From the NCBI GenBank assembly GCA_963808535.1, contig CAWEGF010000023.1, positions 66,715 to 130,714 of the forward strand: a stretch of DNA of 64,000 bases. Reading direction: 5' to 3'. The notes under the pieces are model-generated. The model was not told the origin of the DNA. It did not search any database and saw only the letters and a program-made list of their open reading frames with translations. Of the stretch, positions 1,372-56,545 are shown in pieces. The DNA comes from an uncultured Verrucomicrobiae bacterium (GTDB lineage Bacteria; Verrucomicrobiota; Verrucomicrobiia; Chthoniobacterales; JAFAMB01). Every line of letters starts with the position of its first letter. Positions within the stretch are counted from its first letter, which is position 1. Both the position numbers and the translations under genes were made by a program.

Positions 1372-3183
1372 TCAACTTACTTTGCTGGAGGCCCGCTTTC
1401 GGGCATTGGAATCCAGAATCTTTTTGCGCAATCGGAGTGTCTTCGGCGTCGCTTCCACGTATTCATCCGACCCGATATATTCGAGCACTCGCTCGAGGGT
1501 CATTCGCAACGGTGGGGCTAATTGGACACCTTTCCCGTCACCCTGGCTTCGCATGTTGGTGAGATGCTTTGTCTTGCACGCATTGACCGTCAAATCATCG
1601 GGACGCGAATTTTCTCCGACAATCATTCCTTCGTAGACGTCCTCCTGCGGGCCGATGAAAAGTTTGCCTCGTTCTTGGACGTTATTCAAAGCGTAGGCCG
1701 TTGAAATTCCGCTTTCCATCGCGACCAGGACACCATTGTCGCGATTCGAGATTTCCCCCTTCAAAGGACCATATTCCTTAAAAAGGTGACTCATGGAACC
1801 AAGTCCTCTCGTGAGATTGACTAAATCGCTTTCAAAACCAATTAATCCGCGAGTCGGGATGACCGCCTCCACTAATACCGTGGTGGTTTGATGGTCCATG
1901 GCGACGATTTCTGCCTTGCGGCCGGCGAGCGATTGCAGAATATCTCCGAGATTTTCGTTCGGCACGTCGGCATACAGGGTCTCGAATGGCTCTAACGTGT
2001 TCCCCAAGTTGTCCTTCTGAAAGATAACTTCGGGTCGAGAAACCAGCAGTTCGAATCCTTCACGGCGCATTTGTTCGACGAGAATCGCGATCTGCATTTC
2101 GCCCCGCGCGCTGAGGGTAAAAATGCCGGCCGTGTCCGTTTCGATAAATTGCAACGAAACGTTGGTGCGGCATTCGCGAACCAAACGTTCCTTGATATGC
2201 CGGGCGGTCAGCAGCTTGCCTTCGCGACCAGCCAATGGCGAGTCGTTGACCAAGAAATTCATCTGGATCGTCGGAGGATCGATGTCGACAAATTCGAGAG
2301 CCGTCCTCTCTTCGAGGTCAGTCAACGTGTCGCCAATGGAAAGCTCCTCAAAGCCGGCCAGCCCAATAATGTCACCCGCCCCGGCGTGCTTGACCTCAAT
2401 GCGATCTAAGCCCTGATGGCCAAATAGAGCCGTCACGGTGTCGCGTTCGCGCCGCCCATCGTTGTGAATGCAGACAATCGAATCACCAACTTTTACCCGC
2501 CCGCTGACGATGCGACCAAAAGCCAACCGGCCAAGATAATCCGAATAATCGAGATTAGAGACCAGCATCCGAAAATAAGCTTCCGATGGTTTGGGCGGAG
2601 GCGGGATGTGCTTCACGATGGCTTCGAATAACGGATCCATCGAGGTATTTGGCTCATGGATCTCCCGCATGGCGTAACCCTCCTTCGCACTCGCGTAGAT
2701 GACCGGAAAGTCCAATTGAGCATCGGTGGCGTTGAGTTCAACGAAGAGGTCGAAGACCATGTCCAGCACCTTGTGGGGTCGGGCATTTTCGCGGTCTATT
2801 TTATTGATAACGACAATCGGCTGGGCCTGGTTCTCCAAGGCCTTGCGTAAGACAAACTTGGTCTGCGCCTGGGGTCCGTCGTGGGAGTCGACCACCAGCA
2901 GCACACCATCCACCATCTTCATAATCCGTTCGACTTCCCCGCCGAAATCTGCATGGCCGGGCGTATCCACGATGTTGATGTGGTACTCCTTGTATTTGAA
3001 AGCGGCGTTCTTCGCCTTGATGGTGATCCCTTTTTCCTTTTCCAGGTCCATCGAATCCATGACCCGCTCTTCAACCTTTTGATTGGCCCTGAAGGTCCCG
3101 GACTGACGAAGCAGCTGGTCCACGAGGGTGGTTTTTCCATGGTCAACATGGGCGATAATTGCAATATTACGTATACGTTCCAT
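1372..3183 (-). CDS. typA: translational GTPase TypA/BipA
   Basis: ORF 1372..3276 with G1 motif IRNIAIIAHVDHGKTTLVDQLL, DTPGHADFGGEV and NKIDR. Start trimmed to the ATG at 3183 (MERIRNIAII), giving the usual ~600 aa. The upstream in-frame Met at 3276 is also possible. Confidence 0.9.
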   Translation of the reverse strand: MERIRNIAIIAHVDHGKTTLVDQLLRQSGTFRANQKVEERVMDSMDLEKEKGITIKAKNAAFKYKEYHINIVDTPGHADFGGEVERIMKMVDGVLLVVDSHDGPQAQTKFVLRKALENQAQPIVVINKIDRENARPHKVLDMVFDLFVELNATDAQLDFPVIYASAKEGYAMREIHEPNTSMDPLFEAIVKHIPPPPKPSEAYFRMLVSNLDYSDYLGRLAFGRIVSGRVKVGDSIVCIHNDGRRERDTVTALFGHQGLDRIEVKHAGAGDIIGLAGFEELSIGDTLTDLEERTALEFVDIDPPTIQMNFLVNDSPLAGREGKLLTARHIKERLVRECRTNVSLQFIETDTAGIFTLSARGEMQIAILVEQMRREGFELLVSRPEVIFQKDNLGNTLEPFETLYADVPNENLGDILQSLAGRKAEIVAMDHQTTTVLVEAVIPTRGLIGFESDLVNLTRGLGSMSHLFKEYGPLKGEISNRDNGVLVAMESGISTAYALNNVQERGKLFIGPQEDVYEGMIVGENSRPDDLTVNACKTKHLTNMRSQGDGKGVQLAPPLRMTLERVLEYIGSDEYVEATPKTLRLRKKILDSNARKRASSKVS

Positions 3184-3449
3184 AGAAACCGATGGAGAAT
3201 CGGAAAGATGGCTGCGCCCAACCGGCTCGTCAATGAGGTTTACGTTCAAAACATCGTTAACCAAAGGGCGTTTCACCCGGATCGCAACAAACGTTTTTCG
3301 AACGCGATCATGGGAGCCCTTGCCAAAAGAGGTTTCGGTAGGGCATCTGCGTCGAAAACGCCGGAGTGAACCGAGTTTTCAATGGCAAGAATTCGCCTGA
3401 AATAGAAACTAAGACGGACAGCTAAAAGTTAAAAGAGCAATGCGGAGAA

Positions 3450-4334
3450 CTACTTACAGCGGGAGAAACGGCTTGAATCATCTGTATAAAGCGCGGCTTT
3501 TGGCACCCCATAATCGGAGCCGATATTGATCCCGATCGTCTTGCCTAGATTGATCGGTCCGGCTTGACGATGGGTGTGTCCACACACAACCGCAGCCAGA
3601 TTGGTTGGTGTCTCTCTCAATAGTTTTCCCATCGAGTGGTTCCCTAAATAGGCGCGGAAAAAAGCATAGATTGACGGCTCCGAACCCGGCGGCAAAACGC
3701 GTAGAGGAGGCACCCCAAGGAGTTCTTCAAAAGGGGAGGTATGCAACACGGCGATGGTCCGAGCATCGCCGGCTTCCGACAAGTGCTTTCGAACTGCTTC
3801 GACCTGTTCATACGCCACTTCCCGCGGATGCCGCTCGTTTGGCATGAATTGGAAATCACGCCATCGCATCGCGGAATTCACCGCTGGACTTCCCCGGAGG
3901 TATTCCTCCTCCGTGACCAGAGTTCCGTCGAAAGCGAGATTAGGAACGGCGAAACCGAGATCGTAATGGCCGTAACCTCCGACGATTGTGATTTCCTGGA
4001 GCTCCAGATTTTCCAAATCCAGAAGAACAACATCGAAGATTTTTGCAGCGGGCGCCCAATGGCGAGAGATAATCGAGGAAAGCGAGTCGCCCACTCTTCG
4101 AGAATGATCCAGCATCCAGAAGTCATGGTTGCCAAGACAAACGGCGATCGGGCCCATTGGGAAACAGTCCCGCAAACTTTTCAATGTTTCCTCGGCTTGC
4201 TGCGCGCTCGAGAGATCGCCCGCCACGACGAACGCATCCGGCCGGTACCTGGTGATCCATTCTCGAACCTTCAGCAACGTCGGTTCCTGCGTTGCCCGCG
4301 AAAGGTGCAGGTCTGCGGTGAAGAGTATTTTCAC
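3450..4334 (-). CDS. metallophosphoesterase family protein
   Basis: 294-aa ORF with calcineurin-like phosphoesterase motifs (DLHLS, GDL, GNHDFW, GHTH). Confidence 0.7.
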   Translation of the reverse strand: MKILFTADLHLSRATQEPTLLKVREWITRYRPDAFVVAGDLSSAQQAEETLKSLRDCFPMGPIAVCLGNHDFWMLDHSRRVGDSLSSIISRHWAPAAKIFDVVLLDLENLELQEITIVGGYGHYDLGFAVPNLAFDGTLVTEEEYLRGSPAVNSAMRWRDFQFMPNERHPREVAYEQVEAVRKHLSEAGDARTIAVLHTSPFEELLGVPPLRVLPPGSEPSIYAFFRAYLGNHSMGKLLRETPTNLAAVVCGHTHRQAGPINLGKTIGINIGSDYGVPKAALYTDDSSRFSRCK

Positions 4335-10303: not shown

Positions 10304-10394
10304 CGAGGCAGGCACGAGGGGATGTTTCCCAGAGGGACGACTAGAAAGTAGGCCGCAATTTTCGTCGGTAATCGGCGTTTTAGAATTTGGTTTC

Positions 10395-10640
10395 GTCCCG
10401 GAGGGACAATGCGATCGTAGCCTGGCACGAAGTGCCTGGAAAAGGCCTCTCGAAAGGACCGTCCCGTAGGGTACGGTATGATTCGTATGATCGGACGCAG
10501 CTAATGCCGGGTATTTCTCGCCGTATGGACGGTTTCTGAACTTGCGAGATAGCGTCATACCGTACCCTACGGGACGGGACCATTTTCCTCATGTTCCAGG
10601 CACTTCGTGCCTGGCTACGATCATGCTGTCCCTCCGGGAC
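10395..10640. repeat. family B hairpin-chain element, copy 1 (246 bp, MITE-like)
   Basis: Left end is GTCCCGGAGGGAC..GCCTGGCACGAAGTGCCTGG..GTCCCGTAGGGTACGG and the right end is its reverse complement. Each block is itself a mini-palindrome. Second copy at 41076-41305. A family-C-like terminus CCTTATCTCTGCGCCAT follows at 10654-10670. Confidence 0.85.
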
Positions 10641-37730: not shown

Positions 37731-39296
37731 ATGTCAGACAAAGTCTTAATTTTCGACACCACTCTGCGGGACGGCGAACAGTGCCCCGGAGCGTCGATGA
37801 ATCTCCGCGAAAAAATGGAGGTCGCACGTCAACTGTTGCGTTTAAACGTTGATGTGATCGAAGCCGGTTTCCCCGTGATCAGTGATGGCGATTTCGAAGC
37901 CGTACAAAAAATTGCTACCGAGATCCGTGGACCAATCATTGCGGGACTCGCCCGTTGCGTTCCCAAGGATATTGACGCGGCCGGCGCGGCCGTAAAACCA
38001 GCCGGGGATCGCGCCCGGATTCATATCTTTTTGGCCACCTCAAAAATTCACCGCGATTTCAAGCTCAAGAAGCCCAGCGAAGAGATCATCCGGCTGACCA
38101 TTGAAAGCGTGAAACGGGCCAAGGCCATCGTTCAAGATGTCGAGTTTTCCCCGGAAGACGCCTCTCGTACTGAACCGGAATTTCTGGCTGAGGTGGTCGA
38201 GGCCGCTATCCAGGCGGGGGCGACCACGGTCAATATTCCCGATACTGTCGGCTATGCCGTCCCTGCCCAGTACGCTGATCTGATCCGATACTTGAAGTCT
38301 AACGTGAAGCGTATCGATGATGCCATTATCAGTGTGCATTGTCACAATGATCTCGGGTTGGCCGTGGCGAATTCGATCGCTGCCGTCCAGGCGGGCGCGC
38401 GCCAAATCGAGGGAACCGTAAACGGGATCGGCGAACGGGCCGGTAACGCCGCTATCGAAGAAATTGTGATGGCCATCAAGACGCGGTCCGATTATTTCAA
38501 AGACTTTCACACCGAAGTGAACGTCCGTGAGATTGTAAAATCTTCGCGCTTGGTTAGTCGGATGAGCGGCCTGATGGTGGCTCGCAGCAAAGCGATCGTT
38601 GGCGAGAATGCTTTTGCTCATAGTTCCGGAATCCATCAAGATGGAATTCTCAAGCATCGTGCCACCTACGAGATCATGGATCCACGCGATGTAGGTTGGG
38701 GCGAAACGGAATTACCCCTGACTAAGCATAGTGGACGGCACGCCATGGCCAAACGACTGCAGCATCTGGGCTACCAACTGAGCGACGAGGAACTCGGCCA
38801 GATCTTTATCCGGTTCAAGGAAATTGGCGACAAGAAGAAGTTTGTCTACGACGACGATCTGGGAGCCTTGGTCGACGACTCGATCAGCCTGATTCAGGAG
38901 ACCTGGCAGATGGATTATATTAACGTCACGTCAGGAACCACCACCATTCCGACGGCCACGGTGCGCTTGCGAAAAGGGGAAGAGACGCTGCAGGATTCAT
39001 CGCCAGGAAACGGGGCTGTCGATGCCACCATGAAGGCGATCGACCGCATTCTCAACCAGCGGGGGCACTTGGTAGAATATCATGTTACCGCAGTCTCGAG
39101 CGGCAAAGATGCCTTGGGCGAAGTCAATTTGAAATGCGATTTCGGAGGTGGCCGACTGATTACCGGAAAAGGCGCGAGCACAGATGTCATTGAAGCCAGC
39201 GCCCGCGCCTACCTGAATGCTATGAATCGAATGCTGCATCAAATGCAGCACACTCCGGAAAAAGAGGTCGAATTCCTCGAGGCGGCTGGAGTCTGA
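37731..39296 (+). CDS. leuA: 2-isopropylmalate synthase
   Basis: 521-aa ORF: IFDTTLRDGEQCPGASM, HCHNDLGLAVANS, and a C-terminal LeuA dimerisation/regulatory region. Confidence 0.92.
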   Translation: MSDKVLIFDTTLRDGEQCPGASMNLREKMEVARQLLRLNVDVIEAGFPVISDGDFEAVQKIATEIRGPIIAGLARCVPKDIDAAGAAVKPAGDRARIHIFLATSKIHRDFKLKKPSEEIIRLTIESVKRAKAIVQDVEFSPEDASRTEPEFLAEVVEAAIQAGATTVNIPDTVGYAVPAQYADLIRYLKSNVKRIDDAIISVHCHNDLGLAVANSIAAVQAGARQIEGTVNGIGERAGNAAIEEIVMAIKTRSDYFKDFHTEVNVREIVKSSRLVSRMSGLMVARSKAIVGENAFAHSSGIHQDGILKHRATYEIMDPRDVGWGETELPLTKHSGRHAMAKRLQHLGYQLSDEELGQIFIRFKEIGDKKKFVYDDDLGALVDDSISLIQETWQMDYINVTSGTTTIPTATVRLRKGEETLQDSSPGNGAVDATMKAIDRILNQRGHLVEYHVTAVSSGKDALGEVNLKCDFGGGRLITGKGASTDVIEASARAYLNAMNRMLHQMQHTPEKEVEFLEAAGV

Positions 39297-39587: not shown

Positions 39588-39660
39588 CTGTCATAAATCG
39601 CCTCGAATCGATTCGGTCAAAGGGATCTTGGGTTAGCCTCCCTATATGGACCGAGGGCCT

Positions 39661-39945
39661 GCCCCGCAGGGGCTACAGAATTCAGCCCCGGGTTTCAACC
39701 CTGGGAACCCTCAAAAATAAACGGTTCGCCCTCATAAGGACCAGAGGTGCGGGTACCAGATGAAGCTCGCACCTATCGCCGCGCAAAAGTCAGGGTGTAA
39801 TTGGGACGTGTTACAATTGGACCATCGGACCCCGCTTTCGCCTTGTTCGGACGTCCGATCTGGCGCCCCCTTCAGGGCGCGTCGCTCTTGGTGGACGATT
39901 CCCAGCGTTGAAACCCTGGGCTGAGCGCTGTAGCCCCTTCGGGGC
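39661..39945 (+). repeat. family A structured element, copy A1 (285 bp)
   Basis: Bounded by GCCCCGCAGGGGCTACAGAAYTCAGCCCNGGGTTTCAACCCTGGGAA and its inverted complement. The internal core is shared with the other copies. The right flank carries a family C arm ending GCGCCATT at 40021-40028. Confidence 0.9.
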
Positions 39946-40085
39946 ACAAAAGAAAGGCCTCAGCCCGAGGATTGCGGCCTACAGCCTTTTCGGAGCAAAA
40001 TCCTCCCATGCCTTACCTTCGCGCCATTTTTGTCTGACCTCATTCCTTCGTACTGGTTTAGGGTCTATATATGGACCGAGTGCCT

Positions 40086-40349
40086 ACCCCGCAGGGGCTA
40101 CAGAACTCAGCCCAGGGTTTCAACCCTGGGAACCCTCAAATAAACGGTTCGCCCCGACGAAGGGGCGAGAGATGTGGGTACCAGATGAAGCTCACATCTT
40201 TTGCTGCGCAAAAGTCAGGGTGCAAAATTGGGACGTGTTACAATTGGAGCATCGGACCCCGCTTCGCCTTGTTAGGACGTCCGATCTTGGCGCCCCCTTC
40301 AGGGCGCGTCGCTCTTGGTGGACGATTCCCATGGTTGAAACCCTAGGCT
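40086..40349 (+). repeat. family A element, copy A2, 5' part (interrupted by family C insertion at 40350)
   Basis: The same termini and core as A1, but the right terminus stops at ..TTGAAACCCTAGGCT. It resumes at 40772 (see the next features). Confidence 0.9.
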
Positions 40350-40771
40350 GAATGGCGCGAAGATAAGGAGAATTTGGGATGGGCTCTATAGATAAAACCA
40401 AGAACCTGCCCCGCAGGGGCTACAGAACTCAGCCCAGGGTTTTAACCCTGGGAATCCTCAAAATAAACGGTTCGCCCTGAAGGGGCGAGAGATGCGGGTA
40501 CCCGATTAAGGTCGCACCTATTGCCGCGCAAAAGCCAGAGTGCGCAACTGTGCGACAATTGGACCATCGAACCCCACTTCCCCCCTTGTTAGGACGTTCG
40601 ATCTGGCGCCCCTTCAGGGCGCATCGCTCTTGGTGAACGATTCCCAGGGTTGAAACCCTGGGCTGAGTTCTGTAGCCCCTGCGGGGCATAAAACGAAGAC
40701 CTCAGCCCTAGGATTGTGGCCTACAGACCTTTCGGAACAAAATCATTCTATTCCTTAACTTAGCGCCATTC
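40350..40771 (+). mobile_element. family C non-autonomous element, insertion C1 (422 bp), carrying family A copy A3
   Basis: Termini are GAATGGCGCGAAGATAAGGAG... and ...CCTTAACTTAGCGCCATTC (imperfect inverted repeats). It is flanked by a perfect 11-bp direct repeat AACCCTAGGCT (40339-40349 and 40772-40782). Removing the element plus one repeat restores an intact family A terminus. Confidence 0.85.
40408..40687 (+). repeat. family A element, copy A3 (280 bp), inside insertion C1
   Basis: Full termini and core. The loop of the internal AGATGCG/CGCACCT hairpin has diverged while the stem is kept. Confidence 0.9.
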
Positions 40772-40805
40772 AACCCTAGGCTGAGTTCTGTAGCCCCTGC
40801 GGGGC
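40772..40805 (+). repeat. family A element, copy A2, 3' end (continuation of 40086-40349)
   Basis: AACCCTAGGCTGAGTTCTGTAGCCCCTGCGGGGC is the right-terminus remainder, beginning with the duplicated 11-mer. Confidence 0.85.
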
Positions 40806-40946
40806 ATAAAACAAAGGCCTCAGCCCGAGGATTGCGGCCTACAGCCCTTTCGTCGGAGCAAAATCATCCCAAGCCTTATCTTCGCCAATCTGGTCTGACC
40901 CCATTCCTTCGTACTGGGTTAGCCTCTCTATATGGACCGAGGGCCT

Positions 40947-40980
40947 GCCCCGCAGGGGCTTCAGAATTCAGCCCAGGGTT
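40947..40980 (+). repeat. family A element, copy A4, 5' end (interrupted by family C insertion at 40981)
   Basis: GCCCCGCAGGGGCTTCAGAATTCAGCCCAGGGTT is the left terminus, cut after AGCCCAGGGTT. Confidence 0.85.
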
Positions 40981-41422
40981 GAATGGCGCTAAGTTAAGGG
41001 TAGTTTGAGATGTTTTTGCCCTGAAGAATCTTGCTCACGCCCTCCCTAGAAGCCGTTGGAACCGTCTGCAAGCCCGTCCCGGAGGGACAGACCGATCGTA
41101 GCCTGGCACGAAGTGCCTGGGAGAGCACCACTCCAAAAGAACCGTCCCGTAGGGTACGGTATGATCGGGCGCAGCTAATGACGTTCTCGATCGATTCGTG
41201 CTTACACCTGAAAGAATCACACCGTACCCTACGGGACGGATCTTTTGGGGTGGTACTCTCCCAGGCACTTCGTGCCAGGCTACGATCGCATCGTCCCTCC
41301 GGGACTTTTCAAACTTTCAAACAAGCTTTAGCTAGGGAAGAGAACTTGAAATTTGAGCGGGATTTTGCAGAGAAGCCAGGGCAAAATAAATCGCCTACGT
41401 CCTCCTTATCTTCGCGCCATTC
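40981..41422 (+). mobile_element. family C non-autonomous element, insertion C2 (442 bp), carrying family B copy 2
   Basis: Termini are GAATGGCGCTAAGTTAAGGG... and ...CCTCCTTATCTTCGCGCCATTC. It is flanked by a perfect 11-bp direct repeat AGCCCAGGGTT (40970-40980 and 41423-41433). Removing it restores an intact family A left terminus. Confidence 0.85.
41076..41305. repeat. family B hairpin-chain element, copy 2 (230 bp), nested in C2
   Basis: The same inverted termini as 10395-10640 (GTCCCGGAGGGAC..GCCTGGCACGAAGTGCCTGG..GTCCCGTAGGGTACGG). The central part is only partly similar. Confidence 0.85.
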
Positions 41423-41680
41423 AGCCCAGGGTTTCAACCCTGGGAACCTTCAAAATCAACGGTTCGCCCTGAAAGGGCGAGAGATCCGGGTATTAGATGA
41501 AGCTCGCACCTATCGCCGCGCAAAAGTCAGGGTGCGCAATTGGCGTGTTACAATTGGACCATCGGACACCGCTTCCGCTTGTTAGGACGTTCGATCTGGC
41601 GCCCCTTCAGGGCGCGTCGCTCTTGTTGGACGATTCCCAGGGTTGAAACCCTGGGCTGAGTTCTGTAGCCCCTCCGGGGC
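41423..41680 (+). repeat. family A element, copy A4, 3' part
   Basis: Starts with the duplicated AGCCCAGGGTT, then the core and right terminus. It shares diagnostic variants (..CTTCAAAATCAACGG.., GATCCGGGTATTAGATG) with copy A5. Confidence 0.9.
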
Positions 41681-41813
41681 ACCAAACAAACGCCTCAACC
41701 CAAGGATTGTGGCCTATAAGTTTTCGGAGCACAATCCTCCCAAGCCTTATCTTCGCCAATCTGGTCTGACCCCATTCCTTCGTACTGGGTCTCTCTATAT
41801 GGACCGAGGGCCT

Positions 41814-42108
41814 GCCCCGCAGGGGCTTCAGAATTCAGCCCAGGGTTGAGCCCAGGGTTTCAACCCTGGGAACCTTCAAAATCAACGGTTCGCCCTGAAA
41901 GGGCGAGAGATCCGGGTATTAGATGAAGCTCGCACCTATCGCCGCGCAAAAGTCACGGTGCGCAATTGGCGTGTTACAATTGGACCATCGGACACCGCTT
42001 CCGTCTGGTTAGGACGATCGATCTGACACCCCCTTCAGGGCGCGTCGCTCTTGTTGGACGATTCCCAGGGTTGAAACCCTGGGCTGAGTTCTGTAGCCCC
42101 TCCGGGGC
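41814..42108 (+). repeat. family A element, copy A5 (295 bp) with 12-nt footprint-like duplication
   Basis: Full termini and core. It contains AGCCCAGGGTT-G-AGCCCAGGGTT at 41837-41859, exactly at the position where C2 sits in the sister copy A4. Confidence 0.9.
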
Positions 42109-42511
42109 ACCAAACAAACGCCTCAACCCAAGGATTGCCGAGTGCAGCTTCTCGCTACAGACAATTCCAACTCCGTTGGAATTTTAAGTTACTGCCTTCG
42201 GCGATCAAGGCCGTCCATAGCGCAGTCTGCTGGAGGATTAGCAAGCTGACTCTCCTGACCTGCGCTGGATCTTTCGTTCCATTTACCACCACCGATCAAC
42301 GCGTTATGAAAAAGCCTGAAACTTTAGGAATCAGATCTCGTTGTAACCAACTGACAGCAAAAACCACAGCCGCCTCGGCGGCATCCCTCAAGACCGATAT
42401 AAACTTAGCAACCCAATAATACAGATGAAAATTGTAACCAACATTCTAAAAACATACGGTAATAACACCGCTGCCCTCACTACTCCGACGTTTGCAACTT
42501 TTTCGAATAAC

Positions 42512-43150
42512 ATGCGTTTGATGAAGAAGATCGCTCTGCTATCGACCCTTGTTTTAGGGACGGCCTTGGTCCCCCTTGCCAAGGCGGCTCCCCTGCCAGT
42601 ATCTCCCGCACTTGCACCCGGAAGTGTGAATACGCTTAACTTCCATATGATCCCATCTCCCGGATTGCCCGCGGGATTACAGAACGCCGGGGCAAATATT
42701 ATAGTGCACACTGACGGCCCTGTGGAAGTCATGGAAGTATACGTGGCCGGGTTACCGGCCAACACGGATTTCGACTTCTTTGTTATTCAAAAGCCCAATG
42801 CACCATTCGGCTTGTCCTGGTATCAAGGCGACATTGAGACTGACGCTAACGGGCAGGGCTTCGCTTTATTCATTGGACGCTTCAATGTGGAGACTTTTCT
42901 CGTCTCACCACAAGCCGTACCAGCTCCGGTAGTGTTTAATAACACCTTTCCAGATAGTAACATTGGTGCCCTGGTGGGTCGGGTCCACACTTATCACTGC
43001 GGGTTATGGTTCAATTCACCGGTCGATGCAGCTAACGCGGGAGCCGGTGGGGCCATCACCCCTTTCAATGGTGAAGGCAATGCCGGTAGACAAGTCCTCA
43101 ATACCGCGAATTTTCCCGATCTAGCGGGCCCGTTGATCAACATCAGGTGA
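42512..43150 (+). CDS. secreted hypothetical protein
   Basis: ORF 42425..43150, with the start moved to the ATG at 42512, which gives a signal peptide MRLMKKIALLSTLVLGTALVPLAKA/AP. No family recognised. Confidence 0.6.
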   Translation: MRLMKKIALLSTLVLGTALVPLAKAAPLPVSPALAPGSVNTLNFHMIPSPGLPAGLQNAGANIIVHTDGPVEVMEVYVAGLPANTDFDFFVIQKPNAPFGLSWYQGDIETDANGQGFALFIGRFNVETFLVSPQAVPAPVVFNNTFPDSNIGALVGRVHTYHCGLWFNSPVDAANAGAGGAITPFNGEGNAGRQVLNTANFPDLAGPLINIR

Positions 43151-55444: not shown

Positions 55445-55520
55445 GGTACTTTTTTGAATAAGACGCTGCATTCCCGCTGAGTTGCGAAAAAGGATCATGC
55501 GCCTGAGGCCTTTGTTTTGT

Positions 55521-55802
55521 GCCCCGCAGGGGCTACAGAACTCAGCCCAGGGTTTTAACCCTGGGAATCGTCCACCAAGAGCGACGCGCCCTGAAGGGGC
55601 GCCAGATCGAACGTCCTAACCAGGTGGAAGCGGTCGGATGGTTCAATTGTCGCACGTCCCAAGTGCGCACCCTGACTTTTGCGCGGCAAAAGGTGCGAGC
55701 TTCATCTGGTACCCGCATCTCTCGCCCCTTCAGGGCGAACCGTTTATTATAAGAGTTCCCAGGGTTGAAACCCTGGGCTGAGTTCTGTAGCCCCTGCGGG
55801 GC
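55521..55802 (-). repeat. family A element, copy A6 (282 bp), inverted relative to A1-A5
   Basis: The same termini. The internal core is the reverse complement of the 39.6-42.1 kb copies. Confidence 0.9.
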
Positions 55803-56020
55803 AAGCCTCGGTCCATAGATAGAGCGTAACCCAGGGTTGAAGATACCACGATGGGGACAGATCCAAGTTGCAGTTGGGGAATCTTCGAAATGGGACAGAC
55901 CCCTGTGAGGGCGCTCAGATTGGGGACAGACCCGAATGGCGCGAGGTAAGGTTTAGGATGATTTTGCTCCGAAGGAAGGGGCTGTCGGCCACAATCCTCG
56001 GGTTGAGGCCTTTGTTTTGT

Positions 56021-56306
56021 GCCCCGCAGGGGCTACAGAACTCAGCCCAAGGGTTTTAACCCTGGGAATCGTCCACCAAGAGCGACGCGCCCTGAAGGGG
56101 TCGCCAGATTCGGAACGCGTCCTTACCGAGGTGGAAGCGGTCGGATGGTTCAATTGTCGCACGTCCCGATTGCACACTCTGACTTTTGCGCGGCAAGAGG
56201 TGCGAGCTTCATCTGGTACCCGCATCTCTCGCCCTTTCGGCGAACCGTTTATTTTGAGGTTCCCAGTATTGAAACCCTAGGCTGAGTTCTGTAGCCCCTG
56301 CGGGGC
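56021..56306 (-). repeat. family A element, copy A7 (286 bp), inverted relative to A1-A5
   Basis: Same as A6. It is preceded by an inverted family C arm with terminus GAATGGCGCGAGGTAAGG at about 55935-55952. Confidence 0.9.
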
Positions 56307-56545
56307 AAGCCCTCGTGTCCTTAGATAGAGCCTAACCCAGGAGATCGATGTCATTGTCCCGGCCGACGATCCCAAGGCGGAGCGGTTTTAGACTCGACCC
56401 GCAGCCGAGTCGACGATCGAAGACTTAAGGGCAGCTTGCAAAATAGAAGCGAAATTCTACCTGCAAAGACGCGGCAACGCGCAGATCGAGTTCCATTCGA
56501 ATCTGCGCGCCGCTTCCACCCCGAGTCGGTAACAGTTTCTAAAAG

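Follow-up and report, generated by a model that had tools for sequence, protein, structure and literature searches.

How does a repeat in a bacterial chromosome come to be interrupted, to the base, within its own terminal hairpin, and does the interrupting sequence ever leave again? The question is raised by C1, an element in a 64,000-nucleotide stretch of DNA from an uncultured Verrucomicrobiae bacterium (contig CAWEGF010000023.1, positions 66,715 to 130,714; the whole stretch is called the window here), where it splits one copy, A2, of a repeat referred to as family A (Table 1). A sequence-only reading of this DNA had claimed that C1 arrived by transposition with an 11-bp staggered cut and had pointed to transposases of the IS4 type. 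C1 is very probably a gene-less derivative, that is, a miniature inverted-repeat transposable element (MITE), of an insertion sequence (IS) belonging to the IS4 subgroup of the IS4 family. On a wider reading, the clade to which C1 belongs would cycle by cut-and-paste at one hot spot, the outer arm of the Acido-Lenti-1 hairpin at the ends of family A, with each departure leaving both target duplications plus one untemplated base and with up to three such departures in series. Towards this wider reading we lean only slightly.

The anatomy that had been described for C1, comprising the flanking 11-mers, the termini, the internal family A copy A3 and the rebuilt A2, proved exact to the base. The two copies of AACCCTAGGCT that flank the element are identical at 11 of 11 positions, and both carry the rarer A variant of the site (CCCTAGG rather than CCCTGGG), as fits the duplication of a single site. 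The terminal inverted repeats, GAATGGCGCGAAGATAAGG and CCTTAACTTAGCGCCATTC, are complementary at 17 of their 19 positions, and the terminus pattern occurs six times in the window against 0.07 occurrences expected by chance. When C1 is removed and 40085-40349 is joined to 40783-40806, A2 becomes colinear with the six other family A copies of the window (86-91% identity); in an empty site, AACCCTAGGCT would run straight into GAGTTCTG. The longest open stretch in C1 is 90 codons. A tblastn search of the window with the transposase of a full-length relative gave a best E value of 0.7, in line with the earlier statement that the window holds no transposase gene, and C1 would therefore be a non-autonomous element moved in trans. 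It has the defining features of a MITE: it is short, it lacks a transposase, and its inverted repeats and its target duplication are those of a known IS. Its cargo, A3, adds the preferred target twice more, at 40431-40441 (minus strand) and 40654-40664 (plus strand). Because C1 holds a whole family A copy, every insertion of C1 also plants two new target sites.

A second element in the window, C2, has the same kind of termini and occupies the equivalent site in A4, another family A copy, but at its opposite end; the positions correspond because its duplicated 11-mer, AGCCCAGGGTT, is the reverse complement of AACCCTGGGCT. The cargo of C2 is unrelated to that of C1 and consists of a palindrome with 90-nt arms that are 91% complementary. 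Once A4 is rebuilt without C2, it is colinear with intact family A copies. The sequence-only reading was right about the site of C1 and had missed C2, the scar at 41837-41859 described below and the recurrent use of the family A end. A 184-codon open frame (41031-41585, plus strand) spans C2 and the next family A copy; since it has no Pfam match and runs across repeat junctions, it is almost certainly not a gene.

The termini of C1 are widespread. An exact-pattern scan with GAATGGCGCKAAGWTAAGG, using one genome per species, found at least 118 stretches (loci L001-L118). The matches listed come mostly from metagenome-assembled genomes (MAGs) of Verrucomicrobiota, Lentisphaerota and Kiritimatiellia, and further hosts among them are Gammaproteobacteria, Bacteroidota, cyanobacteria, Acidobacteriota, Poribacteria and Sumerlaeota. 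That an identical 19-bp terminus recurs across so many phyla suggests either that the ends are strongly constrained or that the elements often spread horizontally. Part of this breadth may come from mis-binned MAG contigs. Pairing each terminus with an inverted partner no more than 4 kb away gave 57 candidate elements, including those of the window, with sizes from 82 bp to 1.9 kb. Exact flanking direct repeats were found in 28 of the 57 (24 of 11 bp, three of 10 bp and one of 12 bp) and in none of the 57 when the right flank was shifted by 15 nt. Other elements ending in GAATGGCGC thus do have flanking duplications, nearly always of 11 bp, as transposition with an 11-bp staggered cut requires. 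The duplicated 11-mers differ from element to element (GGCGGGACGCC, TGGACACCCAC, CGGCCAGACCC, GGGTCAGTCAA and others), so the 11-mer belongs to the target and not, as had been considered, to the consensus of the element.

These comparisons bear directly on an explanation that dispenses with transposition, in which the repeated 11-mer and the split A2 would be products of recombination, gene conversion or slippage among tandem family A copies. The repeat units at 39597-42137 (about 425 bp each, 86-98% identical) would be a good substrate for unequal exchange, and the 11-mer itself lies in repeated sequence. However, exchange within family A would not place inverted termini exactly at the junctions, whereas the same 19-bp inverted termini occur in at least 118 unrelated genome stretches, with 11-bp repeats of unrelated sequence, and C2 combines an unrelated cargo with the same termini and an 11-bp duplication. 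The direct repeats found across genomes effectively refute this explanation, to which we give next to no credence.

Full-length relatives with the same termini, of the kind that the sequence-only reading had proposed to look for, exist and encode a transposase. At locus L050, positions 1654-3513, an element of 1860 bp flanked by duplicated copies of GGGTCAGTCAA carries a 493-aa transposase (2024-3505) that scores 228.6 bits on the NCBIfam model NF033592, "IS4 family transposase" (cut-off 115), and 81.9 bits on the Pfam domain DDE_Tnp_1 (PF01609). It is 28% identical to InsG, the transposase of Escherichia coli IS4, over 377 residues (E value 8e-33). Its motif YFQRWSVELHFREIK has the spacing Y-2-R-3-E-6-K and is of the YREK type; the motif comes from the relatives and not from the window. 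Public data contain more than 6,600 related transposases, and the few that bear a name are called IS4 family transposase. The IS4 copy of E. coli K-12 is bounded by TAATGCCGATCAGTTAAGG and TAATGCCAGTCAGTTAAGC and flanked by a 12-bp duplication, and the minus-strand form of the right terminus of C1, GAATGGCGCTAAGTTAAGG, is like TAATGCCGATCAGTTAAGG at 15 of 19 positions. The proposal of an IS4-type DDE transposase is borne out by the profile score, by the relationship to InsG and by this likeness of the termini.

The ends place C1 more narrowly. The IS4 subgroup is characterized by ends of the form -AATR--------WTW----, by the YREK motif and by direct repeats of 10-13 bp (PMC2266710). In both GAATGGCGCGAAGATAAGG and GAATGGCGCTAAGTTAAGG, positions 2-5 read AATG and positions 14-16 read ATA or TTA, matching the subgroup signature, and the 11-bp duplications of C1 and C2 lie in the subgroup range. 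A sequence search of solved structures with the transposase returned no matches, and the extension of Tn5/Tn10 chemistry to this enzyme is therefore drawn solely from family membership. In the mechanism that we propose, a DDE transposase encoded elsewhere in the genome would bind both 19-bp termini (GAATGGCGCKAAGWTAAGG), excise C1 and link its 3′ ends to phosphates of the target that lie 11 bp apart on opposite strands; gap repair would then duplicate the 11 bp. The target was AACCCTAGGCT, the outer stem arm of the first of the two hairpins at the end of family A.

Why this arm was chosen is a separate matter from how the insertion was made. A logo of the 24 nt outside 122 termini contains information at positions -11 to -1 only. 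The consensus of these 122 flanks, GGGTCWGRCCY, is an 11-bp palindrome with C (83%), W (85%) and G (80%) at its center, and the sites used in the window, AGCCCWGGGTT, share the CWG center and differ in the arms. A target matrix was built from the 120 flanks without CCCWGGG and used to score every 11-mer of the window. By this measure the outer arm of family A, AACCCTGGGCT, falls in the top 1.2% (779 sites as good or better) and the actual site of C1, AACCCTAGGCT, in the top 5.6% (3595 sites as good or better). Among the four best sites of the window are GGGACAGACCC at 55923, which scores best, and TGGTCTGACCC at 40891 and 41762; each of these adjoins an old terminus. C1, C2 and the putative scar described below nevertheless share one position in family-A-type ends, and elements of other genomes and metagenomes occupy it too, among them those at L054 and L108 and the full-length IS at L135. 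This makes the family A end a real hot spot, and one not foreseen from the general sequence preference; as the matrix ranks the family A sites only in the top 1.2% and 5.6%, sequence preference alone was rejected as its sufficient cause.

The hot spot may be due to DNA structure or to a variant specificity of the transposase. The family A end folds as two DNA hairpins (-13.9 kcal/mol, z score -3.3). The 11-bp duplication corresponds to the 3′ arm of hairpin 1, with the cuts placed in the loop (TTGA^AACCC) and 2 nt beyond the stem (GGGCT^GAG). This arm is nearly palindromic in its own right, and its center, CWG, is the core of the target of the clade. The outer arm agrees with the consensus in its G at position 2 and its C at position 10, whereas the unused inner arm, TTCCCAGGGTT, has neither, and this may explain the choice of the outer arm over the inner one. 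A bias in the orientation of insertion was considered and rejected: C1 and C2 are alike relative to the target, but the elements at L054 and L108 are opposite. The element at L054 (5871-6294) lies between inverted rather than direct 11-mers (AGCCCAGGGTA and TACCCTGGGCT), an arrangement to be expected if each end of a single family A copy had received an insertion and the two had then recombined.

A target in a stable hairpin, together with a hot spot that the sequence matrix leaves unexplained, could point to a different kind of enzyme, namely a system that recognizes hairpins or single-stranded DNA, such as IS200/IS605, IS110/IS1111, an integron-like recombinase or a group II intron. Group II introns are sometimes found near Acido-Lenti-1 motifs (PMC2864571 supplement). 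Yet the full-length elements encode a DDE transposase of the IS4 family and nothing like the enzymes of these systems, and the element family is also found at GGGTCWGACCC sites that form no hairpin. None of these systems is known to make 11-bp duplications around 19-bp inverted repeats, the arrangement found here. Elements of the IS200/IS605 and IS110/IS1111 groups are recognized by the absence of inverted repeats and of a long duplication and by an HUH or DEDD enzyme, and C1 and its relatives show none of these traits. That such a system inserted C1 is extremely improbable.

If an IS4-type transposase inserted C1, the question remains whether elements of this clade also leave, and a further family A copy of the same array is informative here. 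A5 is the closest paralogue of the C2-bearing A4 (97.9% identity), and the sole large difference between them is a 12-nt insertion in A5, located exactly where C2 sits in A4. It yields the putative excision scar AGCCCAGGGTT-G-AGCCCAGGGTT. A5 looks like a copy of the unit from which an element was lost, with both duplications and one extra base kept. The same exact form, an 11-mer, one nucleotide and the 11-mer again, occurs in the genome loci L050 (1631-1653, directly beside the full-length IS), L117 (1225-1247, beside a terminus) and L048 (4939-4961). Block shuffles of all loci produced between 0 and 7 scar-like matches, usually one or two, even with one mismatch and gaps of 0-3 nt allowed.

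A scan of metagenomes with the pattern AGCCCAGGGTT N{0,4} AGCCCAGGGTT added 38 matches on 32 contigs. The gap is 1 nt in 20 of these, and the extra base is A in eight, C in seven, G in two and T in three. There is no gap in five matches, four of which look like 11-nt tandem repeats, while the fifth (L134) lies in a family-A-like end; one match has a gap of 2 nt, and the 12 with gaps of 3-4 nt are mostly found in unrelated tandem repeats with periods of 14-15 nt. The window and the metagenomes together give 21 one-base scars; those of the metagenomes lie among loci L120-L149, for instance at L135 (155-177) and L126 (870-892). Seven of the 21 directly adjoin a terminus of the GAATGGCGC type, and several lie in family-A-like ends that hold no element. 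At L145 (39-85), four 11-mers separated by c, t and t are followed by a terminus, as if elements had arrived and departed three times before the present one settled there.

The extra base itself was compared with several possible sources. A P-nucleotide, complementary to the last base of the flank, fits L050 and does not fit the window, L048 or L117. A remnant of the element end would always be G or C, and A and T occur too. An occasional 12-bp duplication, or a tandem duplication of 12 nt, is ruled out for the nine of the 21 scars in which the base matches neither neighbor. A 25-bp remnant in which two termini are fused, GAATGGCGCGAAGATAGTGCCATTC, lies on the minus strand of L137 just past its scar.

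Tn5 and Tn10 excise by way of a hairpin on the transposon end, leaving blunt flanks at the donor site, and mycobacterial end joining typically adds one base to blunt ends. By the same route, blunt donor flanks left by an element of this clade might be resealed by an end joining that adds one untemplated nucleotide. The rejoined flanks would keep both 11-mers and one extra base of any kind, and the site would be open to insertion once more. The polymerase domains of LigD can add untemplated nucleotides (PMC8068969), and IS231A, a studied member of the IS4 family, transposes by cut-and-paste (PMC2266710). What the sequences show directly is the structure of C1, its 11-bp duplication, the family to which the full-length relatives belong, the hot spot, and the fact that the scars exist and recur; we infer that C1 is mobilized in trans, that the chemistry is cut-and-paste and that the extra base stems from end joining.

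The strongest competitor to this excision cycle is that the clade moves replicatively, by a copy-out route without excision, and that the apparent scars are 12-nt tandem duplications or seeds of minisatellites. Some of the observations that weigh against our reading are those that this competitor would lead one to expect: a plain 12-nt tandem duplication could formally account for 12 of the 21 one-base scars; at L132 and L133 the matches are clearly microsatellites, in arrays with a 12-nt period; and excision footprints are not established for bacterial ISs, a literature search for them having found no report. What such duplication does not account for is the exact register of the repeat with the 11-bp target duplication, the position of seven scars beside a terminus, the nine extra bases that match neither neighbor, the dominance of the 1-nt gap (20 matches) over gaps of 0 nt (five) and 2 nt (one), or the fact that the scar is what separates A5 from A4. 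A copy-out route would also differ from the cut-and-paste movement of IS231A. It is accordingly improbable, although appreciably less so than the two explanations discussed above.

Other points weigh against our explanation of C1 as a whole. Mobilization in trans is deduced for this host, as the window has no transposase. General sequence preference, as described above, does not suffice to direct the elements to family A. Empty sites are represented by paralogues only, in the form of uninterrupted family A ends, in addition to the scar at the site homologous to that of C2. No orthologous empty site for C1 or C2 was found in exact-protein look-ups of the two flanking genes (a leuA-like gene at 37731-39296 and an open reading frame (ORF) at 42425-43150), because the flanking proteins have no record elsewhere. 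Finally, most of the family-A-carrying units at 39597-42137 and 55507-56340 have only one recognizable terminus.

Family A itself is present in seven copies in the window, each about 285 bp long, and their inverted ends measure about 50 nt. Six of these ends match the Acido-Lenti-1 RNA motif (Rfam RF01687; Weinberg et al. 2010, PMC2864571) with 39.2-42.7 bits against a gathering score of 37. Because the matches form the two inverted ends of a DNA repeat with many copies, the motif, as far as can be judged from sequence, would in this case be a feature of the DNA rather than a small RNA (sRNA). An Rfam scan of 18 related Verrucomicrobiae loci gave no matches to Acido-Lenti-1 at the gathering score, and the link to Rfam therefore holds solely for the family A copies of the window. 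One of the relatives, in a Verrucomicrobiae MAG (L096, 3420-3701), is a 73%-identical family A copy that adjoins a decayed full-length IS and scores below the Rfam threshold. It lacks the flanking segments present in the window, which indicates that family A is an independent unit. Similar hairpins are found near the ends of other MITEs of the clade (L106, L114 and L065).

In the window, units of about 425 bp (mutual identity as given above) follow one another in a chain at 39597-42137, and a second chain occupies 55507-56340. Each unit consists of a left segment starting with (C)TGGGTTAG, a family A copy and a right segment ending in an IS terminus. The units begin at (C)TGGGTTAG in at least three contexts, without the first ~25 nt of the terminus. 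Three accounts of this left boundary were considered: the left end may be truncated, family A may be a longer element that has ends of its own, or the units may have been amplified in tandem. None fits every copy. Amplification in tandem accounts for the repeated junction of the first array, where the A4 and A5 units are 98% identical, but not for all of the boundaries. The first array lies downstream of leuA-like and recJ-like genes, and hence in an ordinary chromosomal context.

Older traces of the clade are also present in the window (Table 1). The degenerate termini at 40011, 40874, 41745 and 55934 each adjoin an 11-mer of the GGGTCWGACCC type, and the last of them, GAATGGCGCGAGGTAAGG, belongs to an older family-A-carrying unit that extends from 55934 to about 56340. 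A decayed copy resembling C2, which directly follows an APH-like gene, has a single degenerate right terminus, CCTTATCTCTGCGCCATGC, followed by GGGTCAGTAGC, and no recognizable left terminus.

Elsewhere, elements that lie head to tail and are separated by exactly one 11-mer were seen at L055 (3785-3933), L066 (~4676), L074 (~7092), L113 (~1814) and L006 (~479). Tandems of this kind, terminus, 11-mer and terminus, imply that a duplicated target is readily struck again, which is one way to build tandem arrays of MITEs. Heptamer microsatellites of the GGGTCAG or GAGTCAG type, which resemble half of the target consensus, occur near IS ends at L066 (2124-2160), L004 (4706-4730), L045 (~5785) and L063 (~2031).

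Table 1. Positions of C1, C2, family A copies and related features in the window.
Feature	Position	Strand	Remarks
C1, non-autonomous IS4-subgroup element (MITE), 422 bp, no transposase	40350-40771	+	Sequence reading, scripted coordinate check
C1 left terminal inverted repeat GAATGGCGCGAAGATAAGG, 19 bp	40350-40368	+	Same 19-mer in at least 118 genome loci
C1 right terminal inverted repeat, 19 bp	40753-40771	-	Plus-strand form CCTTAACTTAGCGCCATTC, minus-strand form GAATGGCGCTAAGTTAAGG
C1 left target-site duplication AACCCTAGGCT, 11 bp	40339-40349	+	3′ arm of hairpin 1, right end of A2
C1 right target-site duplication AACCCTAGGCT, 11 bp	40772-40782	+	
Family A copy A2, split by C1	40085-40806	+	Rebuilt from 40085-40349 + 40783-40806
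Family A copy A3, complete, within C1	40407-40688	+	
C2 insertion with flanking duplications	40970-41433	+	Same site as C1, left end of family A copy A4
C2 element, 442 bp	40981-41422	+	C1-type termini
C2 target-site duplications AGCCCAGGGTT	40970-40980 and 41423-41433	+	
Putative excision scar AGCCCAGGGTT-G-AGCCCAGGGTT	41837-41859	+	In family A copy A5
Decayed C2-like copy	10390 to ~10672 (to 10683 with 11-mer)	+	Palindromic core 10394-10640, 74% identical to C2
Degenerate solo terminus CCTTACCTTCGCGCCATTT, then consensus-like 11-mer TTGTCTGACCT	40011-40040 (terminus 40011-40029)	-	End of older array unit
Degenerate terminus CCTTATCTTCGCCAATC, then TGGTCTGACCC	40874-40901 (terminus 40874-40890; 11-mer from 40891)	-	
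Same terminus and TGGTCTGACCC arrangement	41745-41772 (terminus 41745-41761; 11-mer from 41762)		
General target GGGACAGACCC, then directly terminus GAATGGCGCGAGGTAAGG	55923-55951 (terminus from 55934)	+	
Family A ends scoring as Acido-Lenti-1	40407-40452, 40643-40688, 41636-41681, 42064-42109, 55520-55565, 55758-55803		

The insertion of C1 is in itself textbook behavior for the IS4 family, and its main use lies in annotation. The 19-bp termini mark a very abundant and largely unnamed clade of ISs and MITEs in Verrucomicrobiota and related phyla, and the Acido-Lenti-1 matches of the window, being inverted ends of a multicopy DNA repeat, are a caution against reading such matches as sRNA genes. 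The family A hot spot provides a testable case of targeting guided either by structure or by a variant specificity. The donor sites of bacterial transposons are usually assumed to be lost or to be restored from a sister copy. Serial scars made of a duplication plus one base offer a way to count past excisions in genomes and metagenomes, and they allow testing whether bacterial end joining reseals the donor sites of transposons. If the excision cycle is true, the scars would be a natural record, at the level of sequence, of bacterial end joining after excision by a transposase, and the supposed sRNA motif would be one end of a mobile DNA repeat on which elements can safely land.

The closest known system is the IS4 subgroup, some members of which display "spectacular apparent insertion specificity" (PMC2266710) and whose elements measure 1400-1650 bp (De Palmenaer, Siguier & Mahillon 2008, PMC2266710). 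C1 differs in having no transposase and in carrying another repeat as cargo. Its relatives include elements of 1.5 kb (L026, L019, L062 and L094) and full-length elements that are longer than the subgroup range, at 1.86-1.9 kb. The latter have a second, divergent ORF of the DUF6788 family (PF20586), located on the minus strand at 1662-2003 in L050 and at 202-669 in L135; the two score 42 and 37 bits and are 50% identical to each other. A single ORF is a hallmark of the IS4 family, whose members are normally single-gene elements, and L050 and L135 depart from it. The hosts of the clade, mainly Verrucomicrobiota, Lentisphaerota and Kiritimatiellia, also set it apart from the known subgroup.

The IS231 subgroup offers a parallel in target choice. 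IS231A is said, from the work of Hallet et al. in 1994, to use the target GGG(N)5CCC and to prefer the terminal repeats of the transposon Tn4430. GGGTCWGACCC fits this target, and the preference for the ends of Tn4430 parallels insertion into the ends of family A. Direct repeats of 10-12 bp together with target specificity are also features of the IS231 subgroup, and C1 resembles MIC231 elements, which are non-autonomous, cargo-carrying derivatives of IS231 moved in trans. Several features nevertheless separate the two. IS231 ends begin with 5′-CAT, whereas those found here begin with GAATG; the transposase matches the IS4_1 model and shows no close relationship to IS231; and the IS231 hosts are bacteria of the Bacillus cereus group.

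As regards Acido-Lenti-1, the ends in the window have its two-hairpin architecture and the conserved GGGCU linker after hairpin 1. They differ in being inverted ends of a DNA repeat in at least seven copies rather than a single sRNA gene, and while the motif was described in Acidobacteria and Lentisphaerae, the nearest relatives of the repeats in the window are found in Verrucomicrobiae MAGs. For the putative scars, the nearest parallel is eukaryotic. Excision of Tc1/mariner and hAT elements leaves both target duplications with a few extra bases between them, and the emptied donor sites seen here would likewise retain both duplications. In contrast to those footprints, the scars described here hold a single variable base that does not derive from the element end, occur in bacterial hosts and are stacked in series. 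What this locus adds beyond the known behavior of IS4 elements is a hot spot at a hairpin end, a nested cargo that carries its own targets, and recurrent serial scars.

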